Origin: a virus
Lineage: Duplodnaviria; Heunggongvirae; Uroviricota; Caudoviricetes
Direction: 5' to 3' (one strand)
Length of the DNA stretch: 34,596 nucleotides
Virus record (IMG/VR): IMGVR_UViG_2657244943_000010
Shown piece after piece: positions 15,877-33,372 of the stretch (within the stretch, counting starts at the first letter, position 1; the number at the start of each line of letters is the position of its first letter). The notes beneath the pieces are model-generated. The model had not been told where the DNA came from and ran no database searches. It saw only the letters and a list, made by a program, of their open reading frames with translations. The translations under genes and the position numbers were made by a program.

Positions 15877-15893
15877 TAAACGGAGCGCACGGT

Positions 15894-16604: not shown

Positions 16605-16702
16605 ACGACTCCCAACAACCGGGCGGGCGCGGTGGAGGTGTGCCGGCAAAAGCCATCAGCACACTGCGGAAACCGGTCAGCCCGCCTTTCCCCGGAGTGA
16701 GC

Positions 16703-17206: not shown

Positions 17207-17680
17207 ATGACGCAACTCGCCAGCCTGACGGCATTCATTGAAAACAATCTGCCGGCACGCGCACGCATTCCGTTCACCAGTGACATGGATGACATCACGC
17301 TCGTTCCGTTTACGAAGTCGCTGGGGCACGGGCAGTTATGTACGCAGGTCCGAAAATATACGGCTTTTCTGCGATGGGACGCATGGCCCTATCGTCAGCT
17401 CAATCCGGATTTGGTGTTTTCTCTGGTTGAAGCCTGGCTGGCAGACAACGGCGGTGACCTGCGCCAGCGCCTGGCACCGGATGCGCCAGCCGTTGACGTC
17501 GAAGTGGATGATGAAAATGAAGTGGCATGGCTGGAAATCAGTCTGCCGCTGGTTGATCCCATCACCCTGGTTGAGGACGAAAACGGCCCCATCCCCAGAG
17601 GCGGGAAACGTTACCAGCTGGAAAAGCCTGAAATCTGGGTGGCTCAGGCGCATCAGCTTCACTGCCAGGTGATGCCATGA
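17207..17680 (+). CDS. Putative tail completion protein (gpR-like position)
   Basis: 157 aa immediately after gpL; assignment by position and size. Confidence 0.45.
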   Translation: MTQLASLTAFIENNLPARARIPFTSDMDDITLVPFTKSLGHGQLCTQVRKYTAFLRWDAWPYRQLNPDLVFSLVEAWLADNGGDLRQRLAPDAPAVDVEVDDENEVAWLEISLPLVDPITLVEDENGPIPRGGKRYQLEKPEIWVAQAHQLHCQVMP

Positions 17681-18390
17681 CGCGCTCCGTGATTAACGAG
17701 TCACAACTCCGGCAGGTTCGTCGCGCCATCAGAGAGGCAGAACTTCCGCCGGCAAAGGCCAGAAAGCTGCTGGTTCGCATTGCGAAATACGGCCTGATAC
17801 CGGCTGCACGACGCAATGTGAAAGCACAGCGAACACCGGAGGGGGCAGCCTGGGCACCACGAAAAAGACCGGATAAAGCCAGCGGCAGGTATAAAAACAA
17901 AATGCTGCTGGGACTGCCGAAACTGCTGGCCATCAGGGTTGACGGCAGCGGGAAAAGTGTCCGCCTTTTCTTCAAAAAAGGGGATTACAACACCGGCTCT
18001 CATGGTGGGGCGGTCGCGTGGGTGCAACAGCACGGCGCAACCATCAAAGGCCGCGCCACAAAACGCCGGGACAGCGAAGCCATGCGCACCCGTCCAGCCA
18101 CACGACGGCAGGCAGAACGCCTTCTTTCTCTGGGCTTTCGCGCCTCCGTCGGCGCAGTCAACAAAAAAAACGGACGCAGGGGACGCAGAAAGCCTTCTCT
18201 GAAATGGATTATGGAAAACATGAGTATGGCGCAGGCCGGACTGGTGATCAGCATTCTGAAAGGCGAGCAGAAAAAACGTGTATGGGAAATCAAAATCCCC
18301 TCCCGCGCATTTCTGGGAGCCAGCGATGCTGAATTTGCCCGTATTCTGGAAGCGCAGCTGCGCAGCCTGCATTACGGCGGCACGAGATAA
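17677..18390 (+). CDS. Putative virion morphogenesis / tail completion protein (gpS-like position)
   Basis: 237 aa basic protein, ATGA-coupled to the upstream gene. Confidence 0.45.
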   Translation: MTRSVINESQLRQVRRAIREAELPPAKARKLLVRIAKYGLIPAARRNVKAQRTPEGAAWAPRKRPDKASGRYKNKMLLGLPKLLAIRVDGSGKSVRLFFKKGDYNTGSHGGAVAWVQQHGATIKGRATKRRDSEAMRTRPATRRQAERLLSLGFRASVGAVNKKNGRRGRRKPSLKWIMENMSMAQAGLVISILKGEQKKRVWEIKIPSRAFLGASDAEFARILEAQLRSLHYGGTR

Positions 18391-18409
18391 CAAAATCAGG
18401 AGACAAACC

Positions 18410-20010: not shown

Positions 20011-20013
20011 ACC

Positions 20014-20310
20014 ATGCAGGAGCATGAGCGCACCATTATCACTCTGGGCATTCTGGGCGGAATCGCTGCCGCAAGTCGGGTGCTGGCTGGCGCAGAGCCG
20101 ATTACGTTGCGGTTGTTTGTGGGCCGAACCCTGCTGGGGAGCGCGCTGGGTGTTTCTGCCGCTGCCCTGCTGGTTCGCTACCCGAACCTTGACCCACTGG
20201 CCATTGCCGGCGCAGGCACCGCAATGGGCGTTGCCGGTTACCAGATTGTTGAAATCTTCCTGCGTCATATGCGCCGGAAGCTGGGCGAGAAAGAGAACAA
20301 AGAGGAGTAA
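20014..20310 (+). CDS. Putative holin
   Basis: 98 aa with hydrophobic segments (IITLGILGGIAAASRVL, TLLGSALGVSAAALLV, LAIAGAGTAMGVAGYQIV) and charged C-terminal tail; directly upstream of the endolysin. Confidence 0.5.
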   Translation: MQEHERTIITLGILGGIAAASRVLAGAEPITLRLFVGRTLLGSALGVSAAALLVRYPNLDPLAIAGAGTAMGVAGYQIVEIFLRHMRRKLGEKENKEE

Positions 20311-20315
20311 CAGCA

Positions 20316-20423
20316 ATGCTGTCCCGCAGGGAACAAAAAGCTGCCGCCATTGCCTGGAAAATTATCCGGGCACTGTGGTACTGGCTGCGCAAACCTCAGC
20401 AACCTCATAAGGAGCAAAAATGA
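20316..20423 (+). CDS. Small basic amphipathic peptide (35 aa) between holin and endolysin
   Basis: ATG 20316 with AGAGGAG 8 nt upstream; stop overlaps endolysin ATG; translation MLSRREQKAAAIAWKIIRALWYWLRKPQQPHKEQK. Confidence 0.3.
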   Translation: MLSRREQKAAAIAWKIIRALWYWLRKPQQPHKEQK

Positions 20424-20761
20424 AACTCTCCGATAAGCAACAACAATTTACCGTCATGATCGGAAAACTCATCCAGTTTGCCCATCAGCGCGGTTATGGC
20501 CTGACGTTCGGTGAGGCGTACCGCACGCCAGAACAGGCAAAACTCAACGCACAAAAGGGATCCGGCATTGCCAACAGCCTGCACTGCCAGCGGCTGGCCG
20601 TGGATTTTAATCTGTTTATTAACGGTGAATATCAGACCCGCACAGAGGCCTACCGCGAGCTGGGCGAGTACTGGGAATCCCTTGGTGGCGCATGGGGCGG
20701 TCGTTTTAAAAACCGCCCGGATGGCAATCATTTCAGCCTTGAGCACGACGGCGTGCGCTGA
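20420..20761 (+). CDS. Endolysin, M15-family zinc peptidase (L-alanyl-D-glutamate peptidase type)
   Basis: 113 aa; SLHCQRLAVD and DGNHFSLEH match the H-x6-D ... H zinc-ligand pattern of small phage M15 endolysins. Confidence 0.75.
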   Translation: MKLSDKQQQFTVMIGKLIQFAHQRGYGLTFGEAYRTPEQAKLNAQKGSGIANSLHCQRLAVDFNLFINGEYQTRTEAYRELGEYWESLGGAWGGRFKNRPDGNHFSLEHDGVR

Positions 20762-20767
20762 TTTTAC

Positions 20768-20811
20768 GCTTAATAAGCCTTCCTGCAGGCTTATTAAGCC
20801 CTCTTATTCTT
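20768..20811 (+). terminator. AT-rich perfect hairpin after endolysin
   Basis: GCTTAATAAGC (20768-20778) pairs with GCTTATTAAGC (20789-20799), extendable to 13 bp; T-rich tract follows. Confidence 0.4.
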
Positions 20812-20825
20812 GACTTTAAAAGGAA

Positions 20826-21119
20826 ATGATGATGAACGATAAAAACACCCAGACTACCGCAGAGAACACCATCACTTTACAGGTCGGCGAGCATGAACTG
20901 ACGTTTATCCCGACCGTAAAAGCCTACAACGACCTGCAGAACGACTTCATGCCGGATAACAAAATCGCGCCGCTGAAAAACTACCTGCGCCGTATCGTGA
21001 TTAAAGAGCACCGCGATCTGCTGAACCAGTTGCTGGAAAAACCAGGAATGCCGGCCAGCCTGGCAACAGCCGTGAATAACGAGTTTGTGCCGGAAGTGGA
21101 AATCACCGTAAAAAAATAA
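20826..21119 (+). CDS. Tail assembly chaperone (short, zero-frame product)
   Basis: 97 aa directly upstream of tape measure; ends in an A7 slippery run. Confidence 0.6.
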   Translation: MMMNDKNTQTTAENTITLQVGEHELTFIPTVKAYNDLQNDFMPDNKIAPLKNYLRRIVIKEHRDLLNQLLEKPGMPASLATAVNNEFVPEVEITVKK

Positions 21120-21307
21120 AAAGCCATCTGGGGGCCATTGATCGCCATGACCTTACCCGGATGCTGATCCTGCGCCGCCACTGGCTGCCCGGCGAGGATG
21201 ACTCGCCGCAGTCACTGGCTGCCGCCGTCTGGCTGGATAACCACTACTGGGAAAATATGAGCATCGCCGTCAATAACGGCATTATCCGTGCTTTTAAGGG
21301 ATCGTAA
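21110..21307 (+). other. Programmed -1 frameshift site and -1-frame extension of the tail chaperone
   Basis: Heptamer A_AAA_AAA at 21110-21116 spans the last zero-frame codons; the -1 frame stays open for about 63 codons (KKIKSHLGAIDRHDLTRMLILRRHWLPGEDD...AFKGS) to TAA 21305-21307, overlapping the tape-measure ATG. Confidence 0.6.
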
Positions 21308-23403
21308 TGTCACAACAGCGCCTTGAATTACTTCTTGAACTGACAGACCGCCTGACAAGGCCGTTGCGTGCAGCCGGGCGACAGGTTCAGGGATTTGCTG
21401 CAACAAGTCGGGGAGCCTTTCGGGACATTGCTACCGGAGGCGCTGCGCTCTGGGGAGTGGGTGCAGCCATTCAGGGGGCACTGATGCCAGCCATTGAAAT
21501 GGACAGGGCGCTCGGTGAGGTGAAATCACTGGGCGTCGCAGAGTCCGGATTGCGTAAACTCAGCCGCGCCGCCGTTGATTTCACTATGGAATACGGCGGG
21601 GCTGCGCAGGATTTTGTGCGTGCTTCTTACGACATCCAGTCAGCCATTGCCGGGTTAACTGACGATGAGCTGTCCCGCTTCACCACCGCATCAGCAACGG
21701 TGGCAGCAGCAACCAAATCCAGCAGCCAGACCATTACCGCCTACATGGGCACCATGTACGGCATCTTTAAAGACCAGGCTGATGCCATGGGAAAAAGCAA
21801 ATGGGTGGAGCAGGTCGCCGGGCAAACCGCCACCGCCGTGCAAATGTTTAAAACAACCGGCGATAACATGTCAGCAGCGTTCACCACGCTGGGTGCCAGT
21901 GCAAAAGCGGCCGGTATTGATGCGGCTGAACAGTTCGCCGTGCTGGGACAACTACAGGCCACCATGAGTGGCAGCGAGGCCGGGACAAAGTACAAGGCAT
22001 TTCTTGCCGCAGTAGGCAGCGCCCAGAAAAAGCTGGGGCTTAATTTCGTGAATAAAGACGGCACGATGAAAAGTGTTGTCGAGATCATGAAACTTATCAG
22101 GGGTAAATTTGGTGATCTGTCAAAAGTGGCTGATTCCGATTTGCTGAAAAGCGCCTTTGGCTCCGATGAAGCTGTGGCCATGATTAAATTACTCAATGCG
22201 GACATTGGCGGACTTGAAAAGAATATCGCCACGCTGGGCAATATCAAAGGTATGGATAAGGCTGTCGAAATGGCACAGGCCATGGCTGATCCATGGGAAC
22301 AGGCCGCTGCAATTATTAACGGCATTCGCATCGAAATTGGCACGCAGTTGCTGCCTGTTCTGTACCCGTTTATCCAGAAAAGCAACGAAGGCGGTAAATC
22401 CTTTGTTGCTTGGTTACGCCTGTATCCAAACATCACTCGCGCAATCGGCTTATTAAGCGCGGCACTTATTGGTGTTGCGGCGGTTGGCGCAACGGTCAAT
22501 GTCGTAATGGGGGTTGCGAAATTTATCTGGGTGGGATTACGCATGGTCTGGATGGCCGTCATCGCCCCACTGAAATTAATCGTTTTTCTGTATCGCACAA
22601 TGAGAGTGGTTATGCTTGCGCTCTGTGCTGCCGCCCGCATGGTAAGAGCAATATATCTGGCAATAAACATCGCCATGGGAGTGATGAATATTCGCGCCAG
22701 AGCACAACTGCTATTGATGGGCCTACAACGTGCCGGAATGCTCCTGCAGGCAGCAGCATTATCAGCCGTTTCTGTTGCCATGGGGATTTATTCCGCAGTC
22801 ACCAGCGGAGCCGCAATTGCAACACAATTACTTTTCAGCCCCATCACATTAATCATCCTGGCACTGGCTGCGCTGGGTGTGGGCATTTATTTCCTGATTA
22901 CCCGCTGGGATGAGATTAAAGCCGCGCTGATGGATACCGCCGCCTTTCAGTGGGTGGCTGAAATGGTCGGCAGTATGGGGGAATGGTTCGGCAATGCATG
23001 GAACACAATCCAGGACGGCTGGAATGCACTGGTTAACTATTTTTCCACGCATTCACCACTGGATGCCCTGAAGGATCTCGCGGGCGGCATCCTGAATATT
23101 TTCAGTAACCTCTGGGAACTGGTGAAACAGTCCTTCAGTGATTCATGGGGCTGGATTGTAGGCAAGCTCAACATGATCCCCGGCGTCAATATCGACACAC
23201 CGGAAAGCACAGGAAGTGGCGAAGGCTCCGTATTAACCGGCAGCAAAGCCATCAGTGCGGGACCGGGCGGCATTGCGGCAGAGATGCAGAACAACAGCGA
23301 AAACCAGACCACCATCGACAACTCCCGTCGTGTGGTTAACGTCAATGTGCAGGATCCATCCCCTGCCCGTCTTAACGAGTGGATGGAGCTGCATGCATAC
23401 TGA
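21307..23403 (+). CDS. Tail tape measure protein
   Basis: 698 aa; Ala/Gly-rich helical N-terminal half, hydrophobic middle segments, position after chaperone/frameshift. Confidence 0.85.
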   Translation: MSQQRLELLLELTDRLTRPLRAAGRQVQGFAATSRGAFRDIATGGAALWGVGAAIQGALMPAIEMDRALGEVKSLGVAESGLRKLSRAAVDFTMEYGGAAQDFVRASYDIQSAIAGLTDDELSRFTTASATVAAATKSSSQTITAYMGTMYGIFKDQADAMGKSKWVEQVAGQTATAVQMFKTTGDNMSAAFTTLGASAKAAGIDAAEQFAVLGQLQATMSGSEAGTKYKAFLAAVGSAQKKLGLNFVNKDGTMKSVVEIMKLIRGKFGDLSKVADSDLLKSAFGSDEAVAMIKLLNADIGGLEKNIATLGNIKGMDKAVEMAQAMADPWEQAAAIINGIRIEIGTQLLPVLYPFIQKSNEGGKSFVAWLRLYPNITRAIGLLSAALIGVAAVGATVNVVMGVAKFIWVGLRMVWMAVIAPLKLIVFLYRTMRVVMLALCAAARMVRAIYLAINIAMGVMNIRARAQLLLMGLQRAGMLLQAAALSAVSVAMGIYSAVTSGAAIATQLLFSPITLIILALAALGVGIYFLITRWDEIKAALMDTAAFQWVAEMVGSMGEWFGNAWNTIQDGWNALVNYFSTHSPLDALKDLAGGILNIFSNLWELVKQSFSDSWGWIVGKLNMIPGVNIDTPESTGSGEGSVLTGSKAISAGPGGIAAEMQNNSENQTTIDNSRRVVNVNVQDPSPARLNEWMELHAY

Positions 23404-23743
23404 TAAACCGCTTTACATTGATTTGCTCATCACCGGCCGCAATCTCACGCTGAACAGCGCCAGTGAGCCGGTGTTATGCAACAACAGGGAAAGTATTGCC
23501 CAGGACTGCCAGCACGCCATCATTGAAAGCGGACTGGCAACGCGCCTGCTGGCTGAAAAAAGCCCGACGCTTCGTGCCGACATCATGATGCAGATGACAC
23601 TGCTGATTGAAGATGATGAGCGCATCACACCTGGCACGGTCAGTGTGACAGAAGAAACCCCGCTTTCTGGTCGCCTGCTGATTAGCGCCCACACCGAAGA
23701 TTTTTTTGAACCCCTGACTTTTACGGTATCTCTTGATGATTAA
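23393..23743 (+). CDS. Putative baseplate wedge protein (gpW/gp25-like position)
   Basis: 116 aa from ATG 23393 (GGAG upstream); directly precedes the baseplate J-like gene. Confidence 0.4.
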   Translation: MHTDKPLYIDLLITGRNLTLNSASEPVLCNNRESIAQDCQHAIIESGLATRLLAEKSPTLRADIMMQMTLLIEDDERITPGTVSVTEETPLSGRLLISAHTEDFFEPLTFTVSLDD

Positions 23744-24920
23744 CGGCAAACCTACCGCAGATTACGAGCGCATTCTGGCTGATAATGGCATGCCGGTAAC
23801 CGAAGAACAGGCACGTGCTGAATTTGAAGCCATTGTCAAAGACGAAGGGCTTATCACCAACACATCCCGCATGTCGCCGTTCTGGCGACTGATTACAGCT
23901 ATCACCACAAAACCCGTAATGTGGCTGAAAGATGCGCTGGTTAATGTGGTGATGAAAAACCTGTTTCTGGCTGATGCCAGCGGTGTATTCGTTGATGTTT
24001 TTGCCTGGGCGGTAAACCTGCAACGCAAGGCCGCCACGCACGCAGCCGGCGTGATTCGTTTCACCAAAAACGACATTGATCACGCAGTTACCGTGCCGGC
24101 CGGTACGCAGATTCAGACAGAACGCATTAACGGCGTGATTTATACGCTGACCGTTGTCAGGGATACCGTTATTCCGGCAGGAACACTCAGCATGAACATC
24201 GATGTTTCTGCGGAACAGGCCGGGGCCGGCTTTAACCTTGCGCCGGGATATTACCGCATCCTTCCGGTGGCGATTGATGGTATTGCCGGTGTTGAGAACG
24301 ATGAAAACTGGCTGACCACACCGGGTGCCAACGAAGAAAGCGATGACGAGCTGCGTGATCGTGTTCGCAATCAGTTTAATCTTGCCGGCGCTTATCACAC
24401 AGATGCTGTTTACCGGGGATTAATTGCCGGCGTTGCCGGCATCAGTGCCGACCGCATCTATTTTCTGCATGACGCACCACGCGGCCCAGGCACAGCAAAT
24501 GCTTACATTCTGCTGGATACTGGCATCGCATCCGAACCGTTCGTTGATGCAGTAAACGCATTCATTAACGATGAAGGTCATCACGGACACGGTGATGATC
24601 TGCGCTGTTTTTCCATGCCTGAAACACGCCACACCCTGACCGTGACACTCTGGTTATATGCAACACTGAACCTCAGCGATGAGGAAATTCAGACGTTATT
24701 GCGCAATGTGGAAAATCTGGTTCGCTGTGCATTTCGAGAAAACAGCGATTATGACGTTCAGAAAACATGGCCGTATAGCCGTTTCAGCATGTCCAGACTG
24801 GGCGAAGAGATCCACCAGGTATTTCCACAGGTGGAGTCGGTTACATTTTCTCTTCCGGATATTCTCAGTGATCTGGCTGTTCCTCGTCTGGAATCCCTTA
24901 CTGTGGAGGTGAGCGCGTGA
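23736..24920 (+). CDS. Baseplate J-like protein
   Basis: 394 aa; size, ESDDELRDRVRNQF segment and position before gpI-like and fibre genes match baseplate J proteins. Confidence 0.65.
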   Translation: MINGKPTADYERILADNGMPVTEEQARAEFEAIVKDEGLITNTSRMSPFWRLITAITTKPVMWLKDALVNVVMKNLFLADASGVFVDVFAWAVNLQRKAATHAAGVIRFTKNDIDHAVTVPAGTQIQTERINGVIYTLTVVRDTVIPAGTLSMNIDVSAEQAGAGFNLAPGYYRILPVAIDGIAGVENDENWLTTPGANEESDDELRDRVRNQFNLAGAYHTDAVYRGLIAGVAGISADRIYFLHDAPRGPGTANAYILLDTGIASEPFVDAVNAFINDEGHHGHGDDLRCFSMPETRHTLTVTLWLYATLNLSDEEIQTLLRNVENLVRCAFRENSDYDVQKTWPYSRFSMSRLGEEIHQVFPQVESVTFSLPDILSDLAVPRLESLTVEVSA

Positions 24921-25552
24921 AACTTCCGGAGATCCCTGAACTCCCGCTCCCCACCTGGATGAATAAAGGCGAGCCGTTAACGCTGGCACATTCATCGCAT
25001 CGCTACTGGGAAAAGGTATACAGCTGGCTGACGTGGCCACTACAGCAGATTGATGTCGACACCTGCGCAGAGCCTTTACTTAACCTGCTGGCTTATCAGC
25101 GCAATATCACCCGATTTAAAGGTGAGCCGGTTTCGTTATTTCGCTTAAGAGTGAAACACGCGTTTATTAACGCTCAGGACTCGGGCGAACGCGCCGGCTT
25201 CGAACGCATCTTTAAGCGTCTTGGCGTGGGAGACGTTAAAACACTGGAACGGCAACTGCAGCATGACTGGGACGTTATTTTACTGCGCATTAATGACACC
25301 CAGTTAAGTGAAAACAACGCGCTGATGATGCAGCTCGTGCGCCAGTATGGTCGTACCTGCAGGCGCTATTTCTTTCAGGTAATCAATACAACCACTGCCC
25401 GGCTGACAGCCGGCACATTTGATGGCCATTACAGGTATCACACAGCAGAAGCAACGGTGAGAAAGGACACCATCTGGTTAACCGCTTCGCTACAGGCAGG
25501 ACATTACGGCCTGTCCGTGGAGCATTACACATTACAGGCAGACGAAGCATGA
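24917..25552 (+). CDS. Putative baseplate/tail protein (gpI-like position)
   Basis: 211 aa, GTG start overlapping J stop, GGAGG RBS; between J-like and fibre genes. Confidence 0.5.
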   Translation: MKLPEIPELPLPTWMNKGEPLTLAHSSHRYWEKVYSWLTWPLQQIDVDTCAEPLLNLLAYQRNITRFKGEPVSLFRLRVKHAFINAQDSGERAGFERIFKRLGVGDVKTLERQLQHDWDVILLRINDTQLSENNALMMQLVRQYGRTCRRYFFQVINTTTARLTAGTFDGHYRYHTAEATVRKDTIWLTASLQAGHYGLSVEHYTLQADEA

Positions 25553-27249
25553 GCACGATTATTACTGAACAGTACGAACACTGGTGTGCGAATCAGCTCA
25601 TCAGTGGAAAACCTGCGCGCCCGGATACATTTGTTTTTGCATATATTCCGGGACAGGATGAATCCGCAGAGATCCCCCGCGATGAGATACTCCCTGATGA
25701 ATCCATGATTCAGTATCGTGCGCCGGTCACCCAGTACGGCCTCCTGTCGCCGAACGCGACCGCGTTTTCCATCATTCTGGACACGACAGTCGGCGACTTC
25801 GAATACAACTGGATCGGTCTGCTGAACGAAGAAAGCGGCGTGCTCTGCATGATTGCACACACACCTCGTCAGCAAAAAATTAAAACAGCGAACGGCGTGC
25901 AGGGAAACAACCTGATCCGCACATTTTCCATGGAGTTTGACGGCGCAGCCGCAGCAATGCATATCGATGTCAGCGCTGATGTCTGGCAGATTGATTTCAC
26001 TGCACGCCTTGCAGGAATGGATGAGGCCCGCCGGCTGCTGGCGTTTGATCACTACGGTGAAGCCGCTTTTCTGGGGGATGGTTTTCAGGTCAGCTATCAG
26101 GACGGTACCGCTACTGTTGCCGCCGGCGTGGGTTATGTGGGAGGTCTGCGCGTCAGTCTGCGCGAACCTTACAGCCTGCCGGCTGCGGTCGGGGATACCC
26201 TCTGGATTGATGCAAGCTGGCAGGGATTTGTTACTGGCGAATGGAATACCGTTTTTACGTTCTGCGCCCGCCAGGAACATGCGTCTTATACAGACGGTAA
26301 CGGCTTCCGACACTTTGTCGCGCCACTTGCAAAAATGACAGGAGACGGCCCACAGGACCTGCGCCCGGAGACACCCGACGAAGAACAAAGCAATGCACTG
26401 ACAGAGCACGAAAAATCCCGCCATCATCCGGACGCAACACTGCAGGAGAAAGGCTTTGCGCAGTACAGCAACTCCACCGACAGCGACGCAGAAGACCGCG
26501 CCGCCACATCAAAGGCAGTAAAAGCCGCAATGGATAAAGCAAAAGACGCTGTTGAGCGCGACGGCGACACCATGACCGGGGAGCTGAAAATCCGTGGTGT
26601 TAATGCACTGAGGATTTTCAACGAAGCTTTTGGCCTGATTTTTCGTCGTTCGGAAGAGTGCCTGCACCTTATCCCTACCAGTGAAGGTCAGGGCGAGAAT
26701 GGCGATATTGGCCCCCTGCGTCCGTTCACTATTAATTTGCGGACGGGTGAAGTTTCCATGTCACACGCAGTATCTGTTGGCGGTGGTTCGAAAGTTAACG
26801 GTGCGTTGGGTATCGGCGTTCAGAATGCGCTGGGCGGAAACTCAATTGCTTTCGGGGATAACGATACCGGCCTGAAACAGAATGGTGATGGCCTGCTGGA
26901 TGTTTATGCCAATAGCGTGCATGTGTTGCGTTTTCAGAGTGGCAGCATTCAGAGTAATAAACCTGTAAACGTTACCGGGCGGGTAACACCGTCAGACTAC
27001 GGAAACTTTGATGCCCGTTACCAGACCAAAACAGGCGGCGTGCAGGATGTGCGTTATGGTTCCGAAATGTATTACAACCCGGGAGGTAACCAGATATCCT
27101 GGACATTTCGCTCACCTTCAGGCCATGGATTATCTGGTATTAATGTGCAGGAAACCGGAAGTAATTCGGCAGATAACATCGGCGGCGTGTATTACCGACC
27201 GCTTCAGAAACTGATTAACGGCACCTGGTATAACGTGGCGAGTGTTTAA
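25549..27249 (+). CDS. Tail fibre protein 1 (P2 gpH-like)
   Basis: 566 aa; LTEHEKSRHHPDATLQEKGFAQYSNSTDSDAEDRAATSKAVKAAMD closely parallels the conserved P2 H segment; Gly/Asn-rich distal region. Confidence 0.8.
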   Translation: MSTIITEQYEHWCANQLISGKPARPDTFVFAYIPGQDESAEIPRDEILPDESMIQYRAPVTQYGLLSPNATAFSIILDTTVGDFEYNWIGLLNEESGVLCMIAHTPRQQKIKTANGVQGNNLIRTFSMEFDGAAAAMHIDVSADVWQIDFTARLAGMDEARRLLAFDHYGEAAFLGDGFQVSYQDGTATVAAGVGYVGGLRVSLREPYSLPAAVGDTLWIDASWQGFVTGEWNTVFTFCARQEHASYTDGNGFRHFVAPLAKMTGDGPQDLRPETPDEEQSNALTEHEKSRHHPDATLQEKGFAQYSNSTDSDAEDRAATSKAVKAAMDKAKDAVERDGDTMTGELKIRGVNALRIFNEAFGLIFRRSEECLHLIPTSEGQGENGDIGPLRPFTINLRTGEVSMSHAVSVGGGSKVNGALGIGVQNALGGNSIAFGDNDTGLKQNGDGLLDVYANSVHVLRFQSGSIQSNKPVNVTGRVTPSDYGNFDARYQTKTGGVQDVRYGSEMYYNPGGNQISWTFRSPSGHGLSGINVQETGSNSADNIGGVYYRPLQKLINGTWYNVASV

Positions 27250-27251
27250 TA

Positions 27252-27803
27252 ATGTTGCATTTAAAAAATATTACTGCGGGCAATCCGAAAACCGCAGAAC
27301 AATATCAGATGACAAAACAATATGGTGTCACCTGGCTTTTTTCGGAAGACGACAAAAACTGGTATGAAGAACAGAAGAACTTTGCCAGCGACACAATAAA
27401 AATGGTTTACACCGGGGACGGGCGCGTGGTGTGGGTCGGTAAGGATATGACAGGCATTGAACCCCGTAATGCCAGTGTTATTGAAGTTCCGGATATTACC
27501 GCTAACCGCCGCATCACTGCACCGGGTTACTGGTTTTACCGCAATGATGAATTTGTCTTCGATTACAAATTAAAAGCAGAAGACGAGCGTGATGCCCTGT
27601 TAAAACAGTCCAGCATCATGACCTGCGAGTGGGAAAAAGACCTGCTGCTGGGATTAATCAGCGACGAAGACAGGGAAAAACTGAAAGCCTGCCGTATTTA
27701 TACAAAAAAGTTACGAGAGATGACATTCAGCCAGGTTACAGATAAAGCATCGTATGCCGCGATTGTATGGCCAGAATTACCGCAGAACATTAGCGAGAAT
27801 TAA
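27252..27803 (+). CDS. G: Tail fibre assembly chaperone (P2 gpG-like)
   Basis: 183 aa; N-terminus MLHLKNITAGNPKTAEQYQMTKQYGVTWLFSEDDKNWYEEQKNF is near-identical in pattern to P2 G as I recall it. Confidence 0.8.
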   Translation: MLHLKNITAGNPKTAEQYQMTKQYGVTWLFSEDDKNWYEEQKNFASDTIKMVYTGDGRVVWVGKDMTGIEPRNASVIEVPDITANRRITAPGYWFYRNDEFVFDYKLKAEDERDALLKQSSIMTCEWEKDLLLGLISDEDREKLKACRIYTKKLREMTFSQVTDKASYAAIVWPELPQNISEN

Positions 27804-27809
27804 GAAGTA

Positions 27810-29849
27810 ATGAGCGCACTGTTAACAAAAGCATTTGAAAAGTGGGTTGCTGAATGCACTGCCAGTAATTTACCTGCACGCCCTGACGCTATTATTTTTG
27901 CCCTGATGGAGCGGGAACCAACGCGCGAAGACAATACCGTTCCGGAAGACAGAATCACATACGCTGTGAATGAACTGACCTGTGGCCAGTTAAGCCAGGA
28001 CACTATTGTGTGCAGCGCCGTTGTTCCTGATGACTGTGTTTTCAGTTATGACTGGATTTGTCTCATCCATCAGGCCAGTGGAACGTTATGCGGCGTAATA
28101 AAAACTCCCGTCAGACAGAAAACGACAGGTGAGTCACTCGTCCGCAATTTTACAATCACCTACAGAGGCATTGCTCAGTCCGCGCAAATCAGCGTCCCTC
28201 CCCAGAGCTGGCAGGTGGATATCACTCCGGAGCTGAAAACAGCACTGAAAACTCCTAATCACCTGTCAGAAATTGCAGCAGAAGGCGAAGAGGCGCAACA
28301 GGAATCCCGCGATAATCTGGGACTGAAAGTTTCAGCCATAATGGAGCCACAGGGTGATATTCGAGACCGGACTGAAGGTTGTCTGGCGATACCGGGCGCA
28401 TTTGGTTTTGGTCATATTTTTATTCCGGGTGATGCTGTCAGGTTTAACAACGAGGCTGATTTGCTGGCATGGGTAAGATGTGTGGAACCCGGAGAATATT
28501 ATGTGGAGGGGGGAAGCGGAGTACTTCCCGGCATCGCCTTCCGGGGGATGATAAGTATCCGCTGGCTAGAAGCAGAACGCTCCACACCTCTGCCACCACA
28601 TACAGCAAAGGCCATTATTTTCTATGGCATTAACGGTGATATTTATTACAACCGTTACTGGAGTACAGGAAATGGATTGCTGACTGGCTGGGAAAACCTG
28701 AAAGTCAACGAGGCTTCACTCAGGGCGCTGATTGAAACCCGCGCGCCGCTGAACAGCCCGGCGTTCACCGGTACGCCAACCACACCAACCCCACCGGATG
28801 ATGCGGTCGGGCTGGAGATGGCGAACGCGGCGTTTGTCCGCAAACTGCTCGCTGCACTGGTTGGCTCATCTCCGGAAGCCCTTGACACACTGAATGAGCT
28901 GGCAGCGGCGCTGGGCAGTGACCCGAATTTTGCAACGACGGTCACTAACGCGCTTGCAGGCAAACAGCCACTTAGTGATGTTTTAACCGCCATCAGCAGG
29001 TTAAACGCTCAGGCAGATAATCTTCTGTACTTTGATTCGGACGGGAACGCATCGCTGACACGGTTGACGCCAGAAGCCCGTTCACTGCTGGCACAGGCCA
29101 CACCGGAAGATATGCGCAGAGTGCTTGAGCTGGAAAGGTCAGACACTGTGGTGCCACAGAATAATATTTATGACCGCAGCGAAGGCGTGGTGGCCATTCC
29201 GGGGACGCTGGGATATGGAGGATATTACCGACATGAAGACAAAGTCATTTTCAGGGGAGAAAACGGCCCTGCTGATTTTATTTCCTGGGTATCCACTACA
29301 CCACCGGGCCGGTATGCGGTAGGAGACGGTACTTCATATAGCGCGCCTCAGATTATTGACAAGGAAAATCGTCTGGAAGGGATTGTTGAAATTATTATTC
29401 CGGATACAGCCTCCTCGTCTTCGCAATCGCGTGCAGACAAGCTCATTATTTTCATGAGTAAGAAGGGAGAAATGTTTATCAACTGGCTGAAATGGACCAG
29501 TGCCGGAGCCGGTCTGGCTGGCTGGGGAAATCTCAGCGCGAAGGGATTACGCTCTGCTGACTTTTGGGGAAACCCGGGGATTGACGGAGTCACACTGGCA
29601 GCAATATCTGTCGCTGACCTTGCCTCACATAAGCGTGGGGACAGGATATCAGGCGAAAAGTTACGGCATGTATCGCTTATGTTTGAGAACAATGGTAACC
29701 CGTGCGCAGCGGCATCGGTTTACAACGTATCGATGATGTACGGGTTATTGCCGGGGTCCTATTTTATTCTGAATGGCTCCAGTCAGAGTCTGAACTGTGG
29801 GAATAAAGCCAATGCCTGGTGGATTTGCCTGGTGATGAGGGCAGAATAA
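27810..29849 (+). CDS. Tail fibre protein 2 (paralogous N-terminal domain, different distal part)
   Basis: 679 aa; N-terminus shares PARPD, Y(N/D)WI, SG(V/T)LC, TP..QK and WQ(I/V)DI blocks with fibre 1; distal region has collagen-like TGTPTTPTPP and NELAAALG motifs. Confidence 0.7.
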   Translation: MSALLTKAFEKWVAECTASNLPARPDAIIFALMEREPTREDNTVPEDRITYAVNELTCGQLSQDTIVCSAVVPDDCVFSYDWICLIHQASGTLCGVIKTPVRQKTTGESLVRNFTITYRGIAQSAQISVPPQSWQVDITPELKTALKTPNHLSEIAAEGEEAQQESRDNLGLKVSAIMEPQGDIRDRTEGCLAIPGAFGFGHIFIPGDAVRFNNEADLLAWVRCVEPGEYYVEGGSGVLPGIAFRGMISIRWLEAERSTPLPPHTAKAIIFYGINGDIYYNRYWSTGNGLLTGWENLKVNEASLRALIETRAPLNSPAFTGTPTTPTPPDDAVGLEMANAAFVRKLLAALVGSSPEALDTLNELAAALGSDPNFATTVTNALAGKQPLSDVLTAISRLNAQADNLLYFDSDGNASLTRLTPEARSLLAQATPEDMRRVLELERSDTVVPQNNIYDRSEGVVAIPGTLGYGGYYRHEDKVIFRGENGPADFISWVSTTPPGRYAVGDGTSYSAPQIIDKENRLEGIVEIIIPDTASSSSQSRADKLIIFMSKKGEMFINWLKWTSAGAGLAGWGNLSAKGLRSADFWGNPGIDGVTLAAISVADLASHKRGDRISGEKLRHVSLMFENNGNPCAAASVYNVSMMYGLLPGSYFILNGSSQSLNCGNKANAWWICLVMRAE

Positions 29850-30421
29850 TGAAAATAATCGACATAAAGGCGATGAAATACCTGGAAGACGGGTCTGTTT
29901 CCTGTGAAGTGTTGTTTGAAGGGCGGGCTGATTATATTCCTTATCGTGCAGTGGAAAATGATTCTGCTGCATCAGGCCAACGGGTATGGGGAACACTGAT
30001 GAGCGGTGAGTTTGGTGAAATCATCCCCTTCACTGTAACAGCAGAGATGCTGGACAAAGAAAAAGAACTGAAAAAAGAGGAAATCAGGCGCTGGCGAACA
30101 GAACAGGAGGCGCAGCCGTTCACATTCGAATGGAACAGCAGCACATGGAATGGAGGTAAATCCTCACTGGAACGCTTATTCCCGGCAGTGATGGCAGCAA
30201 AATCTGGTGTGGCACACAATGCCACAGTATGGAGTGATGCAAATAACCAACAAATTAAATTGTCACAACAAAAGCTGGAAGAACTACTTACGGCAATGGT
30301 GCAGGCTCAGGCTGCACGCAACGATGAGATTTACCTGCGCCAGCGTGAGATGAAAAACACGCTGGCCATACTGAATAACATTGCTGCAATTAGGGCATTT
30401 CAGGTGGGCAAAGCAGAATGA
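29849..30421 (+). CDS. Putative tail fibre assembly/accessory protein for fibre 2
   Basis: 190 aa from ATG 29849 (overlaps fibre-2 stop as TAATG); assignment by position. Confidence 0.4.
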   Translation: MKIIDIKAMKYLEDGSVSCEVLFEGRADYIPYRAVENDSAASGQRVWGTLMSGEFGEIIPFTVTAEMLDKEKELKKEEIRRWRTEQEAQPFTFEWNSSTWNGGKSSLERLFPAVMAAKSGVAHNATVWSDANNQQIKLSQQKLEELLTAMVQAQAARNDEIYLRQREMKNTLAILNNIAAIRAFQVGKAE

Positions 30422-31131
30422 AATGGAAAGAGGTAATTTTACGTCCGTCTGCCATAAACATTAAATGTTCTGTGGTTTGTCTTCATCCGTGGTCAGAAAA
30501 TACCGGAAACATCAAACCATCGGGGCGTTATCTCAGCCCCGAAAATGCTGTATCTGCACTTTTACCCTACCTGAAAGAAAGCACAGAAAAAGACATTGTG
30601 GCGCTGTTGTTTTGCGCTCCTTCTGCTGGCGAGTTTTTATCACTCGCCAGGCAATTTTCAGGCGCATTTCCATTGCCAGAGGTGGGGCGAATGTCCCGCA
30701 TGATTTCCAGTCAACTTTCACTGGCCATCAGCAGAATGCAAATCCCCGCCAGACCGGCAACATCACTTCCGGAACCGATAATGCTGTCGACACAGACCAC
30801 TCGCAGCATGTCGCTGGCAGCAACCATTGCACAGGCAGCCACTCCTGCCGCCACATCACCGGAAACATTGTCATCATCGCTGCATCAGTTCATGAATGCG
30901 AGAGATAAAGCCTTACAGGAAATCGCTGATCAGCAGGCCGCACTCCGGCAAAAAGTTTGCCCGGTGTGGCGCTTTTGCTACAAGGGAGCCCTTAGCCAGG
31001 CTGCAGTGCTGATACAAAAAAACATCCCACACCCCGAGTGGGTTTTTACAGCTGTGATGCTGTTCGTCGGCGATAATCTCTCATCACTAAGGGAAGCACT
31101 ACATGACCCAGATGATTGTCCTTGCGCTTGA
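30418..31131 (+). CDS. Hypothetical protein (237 aa)
   Basis: ATGA-coupled to the upstream gene; Ser/Ala/Leu/Pro-rich, three spaced Cys pairs; no family recognised. Confidence 0.55.
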   Translation: MKWKEVILRPSAINIKCSVVCLHPWSENTGNIKPSGRYLSPENAVSALLPYLKESTEKDIVALLFCAPSAGEFLSLARQFSGAFPLPEVGRMSRMISSQLSLAISRMQIPARPATSLPEPIMLSTQTTRSMSLAATIAQAATPAATSPETLSSSLHQFMNARDKALQEIADQQAALRQKVCPVWRFCYKGALSQAAVLIQKNIPHPEWVFTAVMLFVGDNLSSLREALHDPDDCPCA

Positions 31132-31678
31132 CGGGGAAGCCATTCTGCTGCGTAACATCACCGTCAGCGCCACCATGCAACTACCGGACAAAGATATGTC
31201 CGGACAGTCAACCAGCACCACGAGCGCCCAGCAGGGAAACAAGGCTAAAGAGCTGCGCGTGTCGGGGGTTATTGATTTTAACGATGAAGCTATTCTGACC
31301 CGTATTTTTCAGCTTGCGGAGGCAACAGAAAGCAACGGTGCTAAAAAAACATATCGCATTGCTAACGCTACCGCGAAGGCAATCAATATGCGACAGGGGG
31401 TGTTTTCTGGTGGCATTGATGCCACGGAACAACAGGGAAAAATGCACTGGCAGATCACCTTTACTCTCAGGGAAAAATTAAGCGTGCCAGAGAAAGCATC
31501 CGCACGCAGCGGTTCGCAGAAAACCATCGCCAGACAGCAGACCCAGAATGGCAGCGAACAGGTACCAGACAAAGGCATGAATACGCAAAGTTCGTTCTGG
31601 AAAAAAATCAATGATGCCGTTGGCTCTGGTCTGGATGCTGTTGGCATCGGGAGCGTGAAAGAGGAAGGGAAAACATGA
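31103..31678 (+). CDS. Hypothetical tail-associated protein (191 aa)
   Basis: AAGGGAAG RBS; overlaps the upstream gene by 29 nt and is ATGA-coupled to the hub/spike gene. Confidence 0.5.
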   Translation: MTQMIVLALDGEAILLRNITVSATMQLPDKDMSGQSTSTTSAQQGNKAKELRVSGVIDFNDEAILTRIFQLAEATESNGAKKTYRIANATAKAINMRQGVFSGGIDATEQQGKMHWQITFTLREKLSVPEKASARSGSQKTIARQQTQNGSEQVPDKGMNTQSSFWKKINDAVGSGLDAVGIGSVKEEGKT

Positions 31679-33372
31679 AATTGATACAACGCTGCATGAT
31701 TAATGGCGAACGGGTGGAAATTGCCGATATAAGCCTTGTTCTTACCCTGAATGCTGCCGGTCGTGGCTTCATTTCTGTTAACAATCTGTCACCCGAACAC
31801 AGCCTTGCCGGCGCAATGGTACAAATTGATCTCGGCCGTGACGGTGAAGCATGGCGCTATTTCTCCGGCTACATTGAGCGCGATCAACCTGCTGAAAATG
31901 GCTCACGTCGCCTTTTTATTCGTGAAGCGGCTGCTGTGCTGGATTTTGATTTCCCTTGCTCCATGCAACACCCGACGTTGCGGGGGGTACTCGATAATCT
32001 GGGGCGACAAAGCGGTATCGTTTTTATCACTCCGGATGCGGATTATGCCAGTATACCAACTCCCTACATCACCCACAGCGGCAGCGGAGCACAACTGCTC
32101 AGCCAACTGGGGCGAGCATTCAGTATCAGCGATTACGTCTGGCACCCTATGCCGGACGGTTCTGTATTTGTGGGAAGCGCAGCTGATTCACGATTTGCCA
32201 GTATTACAATGCCGGATATTCCGCAACAGTACACACTCGGGCAAAGCGGCGGAAACAGCATCGACATCATGTTTATGGAAACTGTGCGACCGGGCGTGAA
32301 CCTACCGGCCGGGCGCATTACCCGTGTAGCCCTCAACAACGAGAAAATGACCCTGACATGGGAGCGCCTTACCGCCACGGGTACCCCTGTTTCCAAATCA
32401 CCATTACGCAGACAAATGGAAACACAGTTCCCGGAACTGGCCAGCGGTACGCTACATACCCGGCTGGCGCGCGTCATTGCGCCAACGGAGCCCACCACCC
32501 TGGGCGACGTGGCCGACAGTTTCCGCCCACGCTACGCCGTCGATGTGCAGTTGCTTGATGAGAACGGCAACGATAAAAGCGACACGCCCGTTTACCCGGC
32601 AGTACCGCTCCCCGTCCCCATGGCTGGCAGTGAGGCGGGATGTTTTGCCTACCCACCAGCAGGCACCATCGTGGAAATATCCAACATTGAAGGACGTCCG
32701 GACAAACCCGTTATCAGGCAAATCTTACCCGCTGGCCATAACCTGCCTGATGTAAAGCCAGGCGAACAGCTGCAGCAACAGCGCGCAGAAGTGTTTCAGC
32801 GCGTCACGACTGACGGAAGCTGGCACAGAGAAACCGATCAGCAAATCAGGGAGCATTCAGCCAGACGAACCATTAACAGCGATCAGGAAGAACGCACAAC
32901 AACAACCAGAACAACAACAGTACAGGCAAACGACATAACCAGCGTTCTGGGAACCAGCAAGCTGATGACAGGCCAGACAGAACACATTACTACTGGTCAT
33001 TATGCGATCGCAGCCGGTGAGCATATCCAGATGGTAGCGCAGGATTTGCTGACTAAACTCAAAGGGGCGACATCCACGATTGAGCGCGACCTTACTGAAA
33101 ACGTGGGAGGCCGCAGAACATGCCGGGCGGACGGTGGTCTGGAGTTTACAGCCCCGACAGTATTTATTGGTCGCGGTGGCTCACGGGAAAAATCCGGACT
33201 TAATCTGCTGACGTTGTTGATTGATATTCTGGATCTGGTTCAGTTGCTGGCCACACACACTGCAAACCACACCCACAGCAACACCGGCGCACCAACAAAC
33301 AGCAGCGAACTTGCCGCAGACGCCAAACAGGCTACGAGCCTGCGCGAAAAATACGGTGACATTATCGCCTGA
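31675..33372 (+). CDS. Putative baseplate hub/spike protein (gpD-like N-terminus, spike-like C-terminus)
   Basis: 565 aa; last gene of the tail cluster, as D is in P2; C-terminal THTANHTHSNTG contains His-x-His motifs like those at phage spike tips. Confidence 0.5.
   Translation: MKLIQRCMINGERVEIADISLVLTLNAAGRGFISVNNLSPEHSLAGAMVQIDLGRDGEAWRYFSGYIERDQPAENGSRRLFIREAAAVLDFDFPCSMQHPTLRGVLDNLGRQSGIVFITPDADYASIPTPYITHSGSGAQLLSQLGRAFSISDYVWHPMPDGSVFVGSAADSRFASITMPDIPQQYTLGQSGGNSIDIMFMETVRPGVNLPAGRITRVALNNEKMTLTWERLTATGTPVSKSPLRRQMETQFPELASGTLHTRLARVIAPTEPTTLGDVADSFRPRYAVDVQLLDENGNDKSDTPVYPAVPLPVPMAGSEAGCFAYPPAGTIVEISNIEGRPDKPVIRQILPAGHNLPDVKPGEQLQQQRAEVFQRVTTDGSWHRETDQQIREHSARRTINSDQEERTTTTRTTTVQANDITSVLGTSKLMTGQTEHITTGHYAIAAGEHIQMVAQDLLTKLKGATSTIERDLTENVGGRRTCRADGGLEFTAPTVFIGRGGSREKSGLNLLTLLIDILDLVQLLATHTANHTHSNTGAPTNSSELAADAKQATSLREKYGDIIA

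Follow-up and report, generated by a model that had tools for sequence, protein, structure and literature searches.

The tail and lysis genes of an Escherichia coli prophage follow the gene order of the HP1 group of Peduoviridae

The window analysed here is a stretch of viral DNA of 34,596 nucleotides. Between positions 17,207 and 33,372 it very probably carries the complete tail-plus-lysis block of an HP1-group member of the Peduoviridae, an E. coli prophage with the gene order conserved throughout that group. All genes of the block lie on the plus strand (Table 1) and they encode a contractile tail. Their order is R, S, sheath, tube, holin, endolysin, frameshifted chaperone, tape measure, DUF2590, J, I, fibres and hub/spike, and Pfam and PHROGs backed each gene that a preliminary description had named, in the sequence it gave. 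This order is ordinary, being the usual layout of the HP1 branch within the P2-like phage family.

As judged from one-to-one BLASTP and tblastn matches, the window was colinear gene for gene with HP1 (orf15 to orf35), K139 and ESSI-2; this colinearity, like the family assignments, is established. These phages belong to three named Peduoviridae genera (Hpunavirus, Longwoodvirus and Seongnamvirus, respectively), in which the identical order is standard. The HMM-based order was also the same in 80 of 80 related IMG/VR loci, with no departures. The full series L-R-S-sheath-tube-TAC-TMP-DUF2590-J-I-orf33-orf34-hub was recovered in 52 of the 80, the other 28 being incomplete through truncation by contig ends, and of 66 scorable loci, 64 had lysis genes flanked by tube and chaperone. 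Since it occurs in three named genera and in every one of these metagenomic relatives, the order is ancestral to the HP1 group and not a rearrangement in this prophage.

The sheath, tube, DUF2590, J, I, orf33, orf34 and hub proteins were 23-57% identical to those of HP1 and 30-67% to those of ESSI-2, whereas none had a BLASTP or tblastn match in P2, and tblastn from the P2 side for the same tail-core genes returned nothing even at E <= 10. In these searches the matches of P2 and P88 to the window were confined to the head genes, the holin and the fibres, with a weak one in the tape measure. The families DUF2586, Phage_HP1_Orf24, DUF2590 and HP1_ORF34, identified by Pfam and PHROGs, are HP1-specific. 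HP1-like viruses have been described as having a P2-type capsid gene order and tail genes with 'generally no similarity' to P2 (PMC2771037), and tail proteins have been used to define the HP1 group of Peduoviridae genera (PMC10612066).

Table 1. Features of the tail-plus-lysis block, with positions in the window
Feature	Position	Strand	Support
gpR-like tail terminator (HP1 orf21 position)	17207..17680	+	Pfam P2_Phage_GpR E 4.6e-16; PHROG 65 (tail terminator); 41% to ESSI-2 gp21
gpS-like tail completion / Neck1 (HP1 orf22)	17677..18390	+	Pfam Phage_tail_S E 8e-9; PHROG 26
Contractile tail sheath, HP1 type (HP1 orf23), 382 aa	18410..19558	+	Pfam DUF2586 E 3e-127; PHROG 907 E 2e-147
Putative tail tube, HP1 type (HP1 orf24), 151 aa	19555..20010	+	Pfam Phage_HP1_Orf24 E 1e-50; PHROG 1182; 51% to HP1 orf24
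Holin, P2 gpY type	20014..20310	+	Pfam Phage_holin_3_2 E 5.5e-28; 39% to P2 gpY
Cationic amphipathic ORF, 35 aa, unannotated, between holin and endolysin	20316..20423	+	AGGAG 8 nt upstream
Endolysin, M15 metallopeptidase	20420..20761	+	Pfam Peptidase_M15_4 E 3e-11; 77-78% to ESSI-2 gp17
Hairpin, 13-bp stem, after endolysin gene	20768..20799	+	Terminator-like scan and sequence
Tail assembly chaperone (HP1 orf26; P2 gpE role)	20826..21119	+	Pfam Phage_TAC_10 E 1.6e-26; 40% to HP1 orf26
-1 frameshift site and chaperone extension frame (gpE'-like)	21110..21307	+	Sequence; Pfam DUF6890 E 8.8e-24
Tape measure (HP1 orf27)	21307..23403	+	Pfam PhageMin_Tail E 7.5e-29; 37% full-length to HP1 orf27
DUF2590 baseplate protein at gpW/gp25 position (HP1 orf28)	23393..23743	+	Pfam DUF2590 E 4e-36; 57% to HP1 orf28
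Baseplate J-like wedge protein (HP1 orf29)	23736..24920	+	Pfam Baseplate_J E 1e-31; 55% to HP1 orf29, 62% to ESSI-2 gp10
gpI-like baseplate protein (HP1 orf30)	24917..25552	+	Pfam Tail_P2_I 23.1 bits (cut-off 20.6); PHROG 1228 E 8e-82
Tail fibre 1	25549..27249	+	Pfam Phage_tail_fib N-terminal domain E 3e-29, fibre repeat, gp37_trimer
Tail fibre assembly protein 1 (gpG-like)	27252..27803	+	Pfam Caudo_TAP E 5e-21; 40% to P2 gpG
Tail fibre 2	27810..29849	+	Pfam Phage_tail_fib N-terminal domain E 6e-9
DUF4376 protein	29849..30421	+	Pfam DUF4376 E 2e-12; PHROG 1141 'tail fiber protein' E 2e-68
HP1 orf33-family protein	30418..31131	+	25% to HP1 orf33, 30% to ESSI-2 gp05; PHROG 31292 and 1677, function unknown
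HP1 ORF34-family baseplate complex protein	31103..31678	+	Pfam HP1_ORF34 E 2.5e-53; 47% to HP1 orf34
Predicted fused baseplate hub and central spike, VgrG-like (HP1 orf35), 565 aa	31675..33372	+	PHROG 2258 baseplate protein E 2e-232; 38% to HP1 orf35

The gpS-like protein was 28% identical to HP1 orf22 and 42% to ESSI-2 gp20. The 382-aa and 151-aa proteins had been proposed as sheath and tube, and HMM annotation of the tail ORFs upheld the first proposal. The 382-aa protein is a sheath by DUF2586, PHROG 907 (tail sheath) and its predicted fold: the first 43 PDB matches of the AlphaFold model (pLDDT 78) in Foldseek were all tail sheaths, which confirmed a sheath fold for the modelled protein. 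It was 46% identical to HP1 orf23 and had no match to P2 FI. The 151-aa protein is taken as a putative tube because of where its gene lies, what its family is called and how the depositors of K139 labelled the counterpart there ('putative tail tube protein').

The tube gene is followed by holin and endolysin and these by the chaperone gene, an arrangement shared with HP1, K139, ESSI-2 and the majority of relatives. The counterpart of the holin in ESSI-2 is an unannotated ORF in the corresponding position, with 44% identity. The 35-aa ORF that follows it, a candidate lysis accessory, is kept in 13 near-identical IMG/VR loci; in a further locus, L024, a different 41-aa cationic ORF occupies the site, and both lineages are without spanins. 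The hairpin after the endolysin gene may, from its sequence, be a terminator or attenuator. It is located near the site of the spanin genes of relatives.

In the chaperone gene, a slippery site, A_AAA_AAA, is present at 21110-21116, just 5' of the stop codon, and the -1 frame is open from there to 21307, ending in TAATG, which overlaps the tape-measure ATG. A -1 frameshift at this site would give the chaperone in two forms.

The baseplate wedge set would consist of DUF2590, J and I, followed by the fibres with their accessories and then by the small, HP1-specific pair of orf33-like and orf34-like proteins. A W-like gene had been reported ahead of J; a gene is indeed present at that place, but its likeness to gpW is one of position, and the starts of the DUF2590 and J genes were corrected to 23393 and 23736. 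PDB sequence searches and shallow profile comparisons gave no confirmation of the roles of the tube, DUF2590, orf33 and orf34 proteins. We infer the roles of the latter three, and the orf33-family protein is probably baseplate-associated by position.

No separate gpV gene was found in the tail block, as had been noted previously, and this follows from the fusion of the spike to the hub in the last gene. The structural model, together with Pfam, supports a gp27/gpD-type hub and a gp5/gpV-type spike as one polypeptide. In Foldseek, the 565-aa protein gave full-length matches to the fused hub-spikes of contractile injection systems and to type VI secretion system (T6SS) VgrG (E 1e-18 to 1e-12), and half-length matches to Mu gp44, T4 gp27 and the pyocin hub. 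Within its family (n=30), Pfam Phage_base_V was located at residues 310-347 in 30 of 30 members, Gp5_trimer_C in 16 and Gp5_C in 9; the spike matches of the window protein did not reach threshold (E 0.02), and only some relatives gave significant ones (best E 7e-6). As the C-terminal half of the model was of low confidence (pLDDT <50 for roughly residues 353-478), the spike assignment leans on the Pfam matches of the relatives.

Two fibre/accessory pairs were present, a fibre with a Caudo_TAP assembly protein and then a fibre with a DUF4376 protein. The N-terminus of fibre 1 was 36% identical to HP1 orf31, and its C-terminal part lies within a segment common to phiP27, Rac-SA53 and vB_Apl-pPE4. 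Compared with HP1, K139 and ESSI-2, fibre 2 is an additional gene; it was 30% identical to fibre 1 at the N-terminus and contained a 134-aa stretch 55% identical to P2 gpH. From its position, the DUF4376 protein is possibly an accessory or assembly protein for fibre 2. The fibre region was the longest among 64 relatives. The extra fibre/DUF4376 pair was absent from the preliminary description.

Sigma-70-like promoters were depleted in the block (3 found vs 15.3 +/- 4.1 expected), and an Ogr_Delta gene adjoins the portal gene at 10626-10952 on the minus strand. The block is probably transcribed as one or more late operons, in which holin and endolysin would be expressed with the late tail genes under an Ogr/Delta-type activator. 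Genuine mosaic junctions occur elsewhere, in the early region (1821-9722), in the fibre region and in what the lysis cassette contains. The early region, whose genes run from immediately downstream of cox to those for gpA replication and ParM, was a single 7.9-kb block 95.4% identical to P88, and the swapped fibre segment adjoins the extra fibre/DUF4376 pair.

A single region covering at least 80% of positions 14000-34596 was present in 41 of 5,426 complete E. coli genomes (best match 99.4% identity), and the window is therefore not an artefact. Prophage identity was 95-99% across these 41 genomes, which carry most of the element and come from varied hosts, and IMG/VR held many near-identical contigs. 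Among deposited phages there was no close relative in the virion half, where the best sheath identity was 56% and megablast matched the fibre segment only. The prophage thus stands outside every named genus.

The same surveys bear on whether the element is a defective prophage or a domesticated tailocin-like element yielding no infectious phage, which would be compatible with its HP1-type identity but would change the function of the block. No spanin was recognisable in the lysis cassette, one near-identical copy carried the IS66-family element ISEc23 in the early region as well as pseudogene fragments, and the virion half has no close match among cultured phages. We nevertheless consider this reading improbable, given the conservation among complete genomes and the many near-identical contigs; the head, packaging, tail, integrase and replication ORFs are all full length and tightly packed, and about 15% of phages are without spanins and still lyse their hosts, according to bioRxiv 10.1101/515445. 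This HP1-group prophage probably produces virions and may be lytically competent.

It is very unlikely that the tail was captured from a Mu-like or other unrelated myovirus and joined to a P2-type head. Mu likewise has sheath, tube, chaperone and tape measure in succession, and the predicted hub fold resembles Mu gp44 (1wru, 9ki1_G) and the MuSo2 43-kDa protein. However, identity to Mu proteins was only 12-14%, and all sequence families were HP1-specific. The hub and spike of Mu are separate proteins, with genes placed before the wedge genes, and the Foldseek list contained the separate Mu chains 9ki1_G and 9ki1_V. The head-tail junction was the same in every HP1-group genome examined; therefore, any capture would date from the origin of the group and would not be a feature of this window. 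Tail capture at that origin has been proposed (PMC10612066).

The preliminary description had correctly concluded that this is not a P2 clone and that its order differs from that of P2, but it was wrong in taking the tail for a permuted or mosaic P2 tail. A P2-type tail with recently permuted operons (F ahead of V, lysis cassette relocated), forming a one-off mosaic, is scarcely credible, as the colinearity with HP1, K139 and ESSI-2 refutes it and the tail core lacks P2 matches. The points in its favour are the P2 order of the head genes Q, P, O, N, M and L, with 25-43% identity to P2, a holin resembling gpY, fibre and assembly proteins with 36-55% identity to P2 H and G, and an integrase with 54% identity to P2 Int.

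Compared with known systems, the 565-aa protein resembles the fused hub-spikes VgrG, Afp8 and Pvc8 in its full-length Foldseek alignment and in the OB-fold and gp5 beta-helix Pfam signatures of its family; it differs in identity (10-15%) and in being part of a phage baseplate rather than of a secretion system or tailocin. Enterobacteria phage P2 (Peduovirus) has its head and packaging genes in the same arrangement, with Q and P diverging from O-N-M-L, and also shares homologues of R and S, a holin of the gpY type, fibre parts of the H/G type, the chaperone frameshift and an Ogr-type activator gene. Its order, however, is lysis, R-S, V-W-J-I-H-G, FI-FII-E-T-U-D, with V and D as separate genes, and no sequence similarity could be detected between its sheath, tube and baseplate proteins and their counterparts in the window. 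Escherichia phage P88 (Xuanwuvirus, P2 subgroup) shares the 7.9-kb early block, but its late region (X, holin, endolysin, R, S, V, W, J, I, H, G) is of P2 type, and the genes for sheath, tube and tape measure are encoded there on the other strand; its head proteins were only 24-36% identical to those of the window, and its sole tail-core match was the weak one in the tape measure (25% identity, E 8e-7).

Vibrio phage K139 has the same order, with lysis genes between tube and tape measure, but identity was lower (31-50%), K139 additionally carries a DksA-like zinc-finger gene and a small orf23, and its endolysin is of the lysozyme type. Haemophilus phage HP1 is identical in order from portal to hub/spike, including the placement of the lysis genes, and has the same Pfam families; it differs in its lysozyme-type endolysin, another holin, an Rz-like spanin (orf25), one fibre gene with one assembly gene, and an unrelated early region. 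The closest deposited phages in the virion half were ESSI-2 and its relatives (Cronobacter, Seongnamvirus). In ESSI-2 the endolysin is followed by Rz-type spanins and there is only one fibre gene; the phage represents a different genus by the usual nucleotide criterion, since there was no megablast-level DNA similarity, but it shares the order, and identities were 55% (sheath), 59% (capsid), 62% (J), 45% (hub) and 77-78% (M15 endolysin).

The block at 17207-33372 is predicted to encode a contractile tail. Within this tightly packed prophage, approximately 20 ORFs lie closely spaced on one strand across the block, and Pfam and PHROGs recovered every gene named in the preliminary description, in the order that it had given. 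The indicators of a temperate myovirus virion with a contractile tail are the predicted sheath fold and the integrase gene. As proposed, the 382-aa protein is a sheath: it carries DUF2586, it matches a PHROG annotated as tail sheath, and the first 43 PDB matches obtained by Foldseek with its AlphaFold model (pLDDT 78) were all sheath proteins. The suspected frameshift in the chaperone gene was likewise borne out by a slippery site (A_AAA_AAA, 21110-21116) immediately 5' of the stop codon and by a -1 frame that is open up to 21307, where a TAATG overlaps the tape-measure start; the -1 extension corresponds to Pfam DUF6890 (E 9e-24). PDB sequence searches with the sheath, tube, and hub proteins gave no significant match, nor did PDB searches with 4-sequence profiles of the tube, DUF2590, and ORF34 proteins, and NCBIfam returned sub-threshold VgrG and tail_comp_S matches only. 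Compared by hhalign with P2 gpW, the shallow DUF2590 profile gave a probability of 1%; all of the support for calling this protein 'W-like' is its position between the tape measure and J.

Genes of the tail and lysis block, with the source of each assignment
Feature	Coordinates	Strand	Evidence
GpR tail terminator	17207-17680	+	Pfam/PHROGs
Phage_tail_S	17677-18390	+	Pfam/PHROGs
Tail sheath, DUF2586, 382 aa	18410-19558	+	PHROG 'tail sheath' E 2e-147
Putative tube, Phage_HP1_Orf24	19555-20010	+	Pfam/PHROGs
Holin	20014-20310	+	Pfam/PHROGs
Endolysin, M15 peptidase	20420-20761	+	Pfam/PHROGs
Chaperone, Phage_TAC_10	20826-21119	+	Pfam/PHROGs
Tape measure	21307-23403	+	Pfam/PHROGs
DUF2590	23393-23743	+	Pfam/PHROGs
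Baseplate_J	23736-24920	+	Pfam/PHROGs
Tail_P2_I	24917-25552	+	Pfam/PHROGs
Fibre 1	25549-27249	+	Pfam/PHROGs
Caudo_TAP assembly protein	27252-27803	+	Pfam/PHROGs
Fibre 2	27810-29849	+	Pfam/PHROGs
DUF4376 protein	29849-30421	+	Pfam/PHROGs
orf33-like protein	30418-31131	+	Pfam/PHROGs
HP1_ORF34	31103-31678	+	Pfam/PHROGs
'Baseplate protein', 565 aa, HP1 orf35 family	31675-33372	+	Pfam/PHROGs

The tail contains the HP1-type Pfam families DUF2586, Phage_HP1_Orf24, DUF2590, and HP1_ORF34, and its proteins were closer to those of HP1 than to those of P2, the comparison used in Table 2 of PMC10612066. The tail genes run in the HP1-group order R-S-sheath-tube-(lysis)-chaperone-TMP-orf28-J-I-fibre-orf33-orf34-orf35. 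The head and packaging genes form a P2-type block, as in the HP1 group, in which the portal and large terminase genes diverge from those for scaffold, capsid, small terminase, and head completion (Q and P on the minus strand, 10949-13763; O, N, M, and L on the plus strand, 13958-17197). Their products match homologues in HP1, K139, ESSI-2, and P2, and L carries Phage_GPL. HP1 itself is annotated in the order Q, P / O, N, M, orf20 (L), orf21, orf22, orf23 (sheath), orf24, hol, lys, orf25 (Rz-like), orf26-orf30, orf31 (fibre), orf32, orf33, orf34, and orf35. By BLASTP and tblastn, matches were one-to-one and colinear, with coordinates increasing monotonically, in HP1 (Hpunavirus; proteins 23-57% identical), K139 (Longwoodvirus; 31-54%), and ESSI-2 (Seongnamvirus; 23-78%). 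In the RefSeq record of ESSI-2 (NC_047854), the holin and tail assembly chaperone are not annotated; tblastn with the proteins of the window located both on the minus strand at the expected positions (holin, 11098-11349, 44% identity; chaperone, 9984-10226, 42% identity).

Gene order was surveyed in 80 IMG/VR loci, retrieved via the J protein from 506 relatives found, in which 13 gene families were located with HMMs made from sequences of the window, HP1, ESSI-2, and K139. The full series L-R-S-sheath-tube-TAC-TMP-DUF2590-J-I-orf33-orf34-hub was present in 52 loci; the other 28 were cut by contig ends, and the order deviated in none of the 80. The arrangement had initially been read as a permuted, mosaic version of the P2 tail. 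That reading did not hold, as the identical order is standard in Hpunavirus, Longwoodvirus, and Seongnamvirus and the core tail proteins of P2 were unmatched. The HP1-type arrangement is already in the literature (Lavigne et al., PMC2771037), and the Peduoviridae genera then catalogued in GenBank were divided in 2023 by their tail proteins into a P2 subgroup and an HP1 group that takes in these three genera (PMC10612066). The architecture is thus ordinary and previously described, and the prophage is a new, unclassified HP1-group member of the Peduoviridae.

Membership of Seongnamvirus was considered and rejected. Under ICTV practice, genera are demarcated at approximately 70% nucleotide similarity genome-wide, and similarity at the genus level was absent. 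When 13900-34596 was compared by megablast with 50,697 phage records, the matches were short segments only, mainly in the fibres, and no ESSI-2-like record was among them. Over the virion half, no deposited phage was a near match, and the highest identity for the sheath was 56%.

Matches of P2 proteins to the window were limited to Q, P, O, N, M, L, S (weak), holin, T (weak), H, G, and Int. P2 V, W, J, I, FI, FII, E, U, D, and R gave no match even at E <= 10, and neither BLASTP nor tblastn matched P2-type FI sheath or FII tube sequences in either direction. Shallow profiles of the tube, DUF2590, and ORF34 proteins compared by hhalign with P2 FII, W, and U gave no signal, so that homology to P2 at the profile level rests on the literature (PMC10612066).

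The earlier observation that no separate gpV-like spike gene lies between the tape measure and the W-like gene was correct, because the spike is predicted to be part of the last gene of the block. Its 565-aa product has a VgrG-like layout, with a gp27-like hub, a gp5/gpV OB-fold, and a beta-helix in one chain. Foldseek matches over the full length were fused hub-spikes, including those of the Anabaena contractile injection system (7b5h_AJ, E 1e-18), AlgoCIS, Pvc8, Afp8, and T6SS VgrG; the free-standing hubs Mu gp44, T4 gp27, and the pyocin R2 hub aligned to the N-terminal half only, and the separate Mu spike gp45 gave E 1e-3. The Pfam Phage_base_V domain (OB-fold, residues 310-347) was found in 30 of 30 aligned family members, Gp5_trimer_C in 16, and Gp5_C in nine, and several homologues carry the source names 'Gp5/Vgr OB-fold domain' or 'baseplate assembly protein V'. 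The N-terminal half of the model is confident (pLDDT 80-95, residues 1-240). By structure prediction and domain matches, the spike is fused to the hub in this protein; the C-terminus of the model is of low confidence, and that half rests on the Pfam matches. In the Mu tail, the genes for a hub (gp44) and a separate spike (gp45) come after the tape measure and before the wedge genes. A Mu-like tail module was rejected, as the prophage has one gene for the hub-spike, placed at the far end past the fibres, and its likeness to gp44 is at the level of the fold only (14% identity).

Lysis genes lie between tube and chaperone in 64 of the 66 IMG/VR loci that could be scored. The sole exceptions, the HP1-group loci L063 and L067, have a tube-chaperone spacing of 123-137 nt without a cassette there, and their lysis cassette must be elsewhere. 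The commonest arrangement (45 of 66 loci) is holin-M15-Rz, in which Rz-type spanin genes come after the M15 endolysin. The cassette in the window consists of a P2-Y-type holin and an ESSI-2-type M15 endolysin; a lipobox scan of all ORFs in the window detected no convincing o-spanin or u-spanin, and tblastn with HP1, ESSI-2, and P2 spanins gave no match. An insert of approximately 110 nt in the gap between holin and endolysin encodes a 35-aa peptide, MLSRREQKAAAIAWKIIRALWYWLRKPQQPHKEQK (20316-20423), which is amphipathic, has a net charge of approximately +7, and is preceded by a good Shine-Dalgarno sequence. The IMG/VR relative L024, the only other spanin-less M15 relative, has a different cationic ORF of 41 aa in the same place. 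phiKT gp28 is reported to be a disruptin, an outer-membrane breaker that replaces the spanin (bioRxiv 10.1101/515445). With Rz/Rz1 absent, the 35-aa peptide is a candidate for a similar role in the spanin's stead, although we consider this analogy with phiKT gp28 quite unlikely to be correct.

The block is probably expressed late. Sigma-70-like promoters were depleted within it (3 found vs. 15.3 ± 4.1 expected), and a gene for an Ogr/Delta zinc-finger protein (10626-10952, minus strand) adjoins the portal gene. The divergent promoter gap between P and O (portal/terminase-scaffold) contains a perfect dyad, TCGGATAT-N6-ATATCCGA, flanked by half-site-like repeats (13840-13884), which is a candidate binding site for this Ogr/Delta-type late activator. 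As the dyad occurs once in the window, it is of no use for placing other late promoters. No signal came from the late-promoter motif of P2, TGT-N12-ACA, with 7 occurrences vs. 8.4 expected and none in the P/O gap. A hairpin with a 13-bp stem (20768-20799) lies between endolysin and chaperone, in the widest intergenic gap of the lysis-chaperone stretch; it follows the M15 gene, as the Rz-type spanin genes do in the commonest arrangement among relatives, and may divide the block into two transcription units.

Mosaicism was found in the early region, the fibres, and the lysis cassette with its P2-Y-type holin and ESSI-2-type endolysin. The early region (1821-9722, from just past cox to gpA and ParM) is 95.4% identical to P88 in a single 7.9-kb block that contains DUF4761, DUF4754, MarR-like, Ea22-like, and SPFH genes, the gpA replication endonuclease, and ParM. 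The late region and tail of P88 (Xuanwuvirus) are of the P2 type, and identity between its head proteins and those of the window is only 24-36%. Given this combination, the prophage is, judged from sequence, a chimera of recent origin that bridges the deep divide between P2 and HP1, with a P88-type early region and an HP1-type virion module. The actin-like segregation ATPase ParM (8606-9565) is followed by a partition/stability protein (approximately 9570-9884), and the pair also occurs in P88-like phages; its presence in a prophage that has an integrase and is integrated in the chromosome hints at an option of plasmid-like maintenance.

The fibre region (25549-30421) comprises two tandem fibre genes with an accessory gene after each. 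Both fibres have an N-terminal tail-collar attachment domain, and these are 30% identical to each other. Fibre regions of Rac-SA53 and vB_Apl-pPE4 share 83-89% identity with the stretch 26572-29137, in which lie the C-terminus of fibre 1, the assembly gene, and the greater part of fibre 2; phiP27 matches 0.5 kb of this stretch at 87% identity. With fibre 2 and the DUF4376 gene, the region is the longest among 64 relatives. No gene for an invertase was evident in the window. These comparisons suggest that fibre 2 is a second receptor-binding fibre gained horizontally.

Of 5,426 complete E. coli genomes, 41 (approximately 0.8%) had at least 80% of 14000-34596 covered at a single location. The best match was 99.4% identical, and that copy adjoins raiA/bamD. 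A tailocin was rejected, as the prophage has the full complement of head, terminase, integrase, and replication genes, and colinear copies at 95-99% identity in complete genomes rule against an assembly chimera. Cargo genes lie 3' of the hub/spike gene in the window (33958-34596) and in the near-identical copy of E. coli 7_33_46A (35199-38054 of locus L006), where they precede raiA and encode a YafO-family toxin, an ATP-dependent nuclease, a fragment of a methyltransferase, and a hypothetical protein. Situated at the end of the prophage, these genes may be morons or serve in defence.

The value of this analysis is mainly corrective: recognition of a standard HP1-group module supplies names for approximately 20 prophage genes. 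In RefSeq annotation of E. coli, most of the tail genes are 'hypothetical', 'phage protein', or 'DUF' (DUF2586, HP1_Orf24, DUF2590, orf33-35 proteins), and because of such labels the HP1-type tail seems odd when P2 serves as the template. Modest leads on modular evolution, host range, and lysis are offered by the P88-like early module, the tandem fibres with their accessory genes, and the cassette without a recognisable spanin. P2 has the order lysis, R-S, V-W-J-I-H-G, then FI-FII-E-T-U-D, with separate gpV and gpD, and the window differs in both respects; by gene position, the HP1 order in P2 terms would read FI-FII-[lysis]-E/E'-T-[W-J-I-H-G]-(x)-U-like-(D+V).
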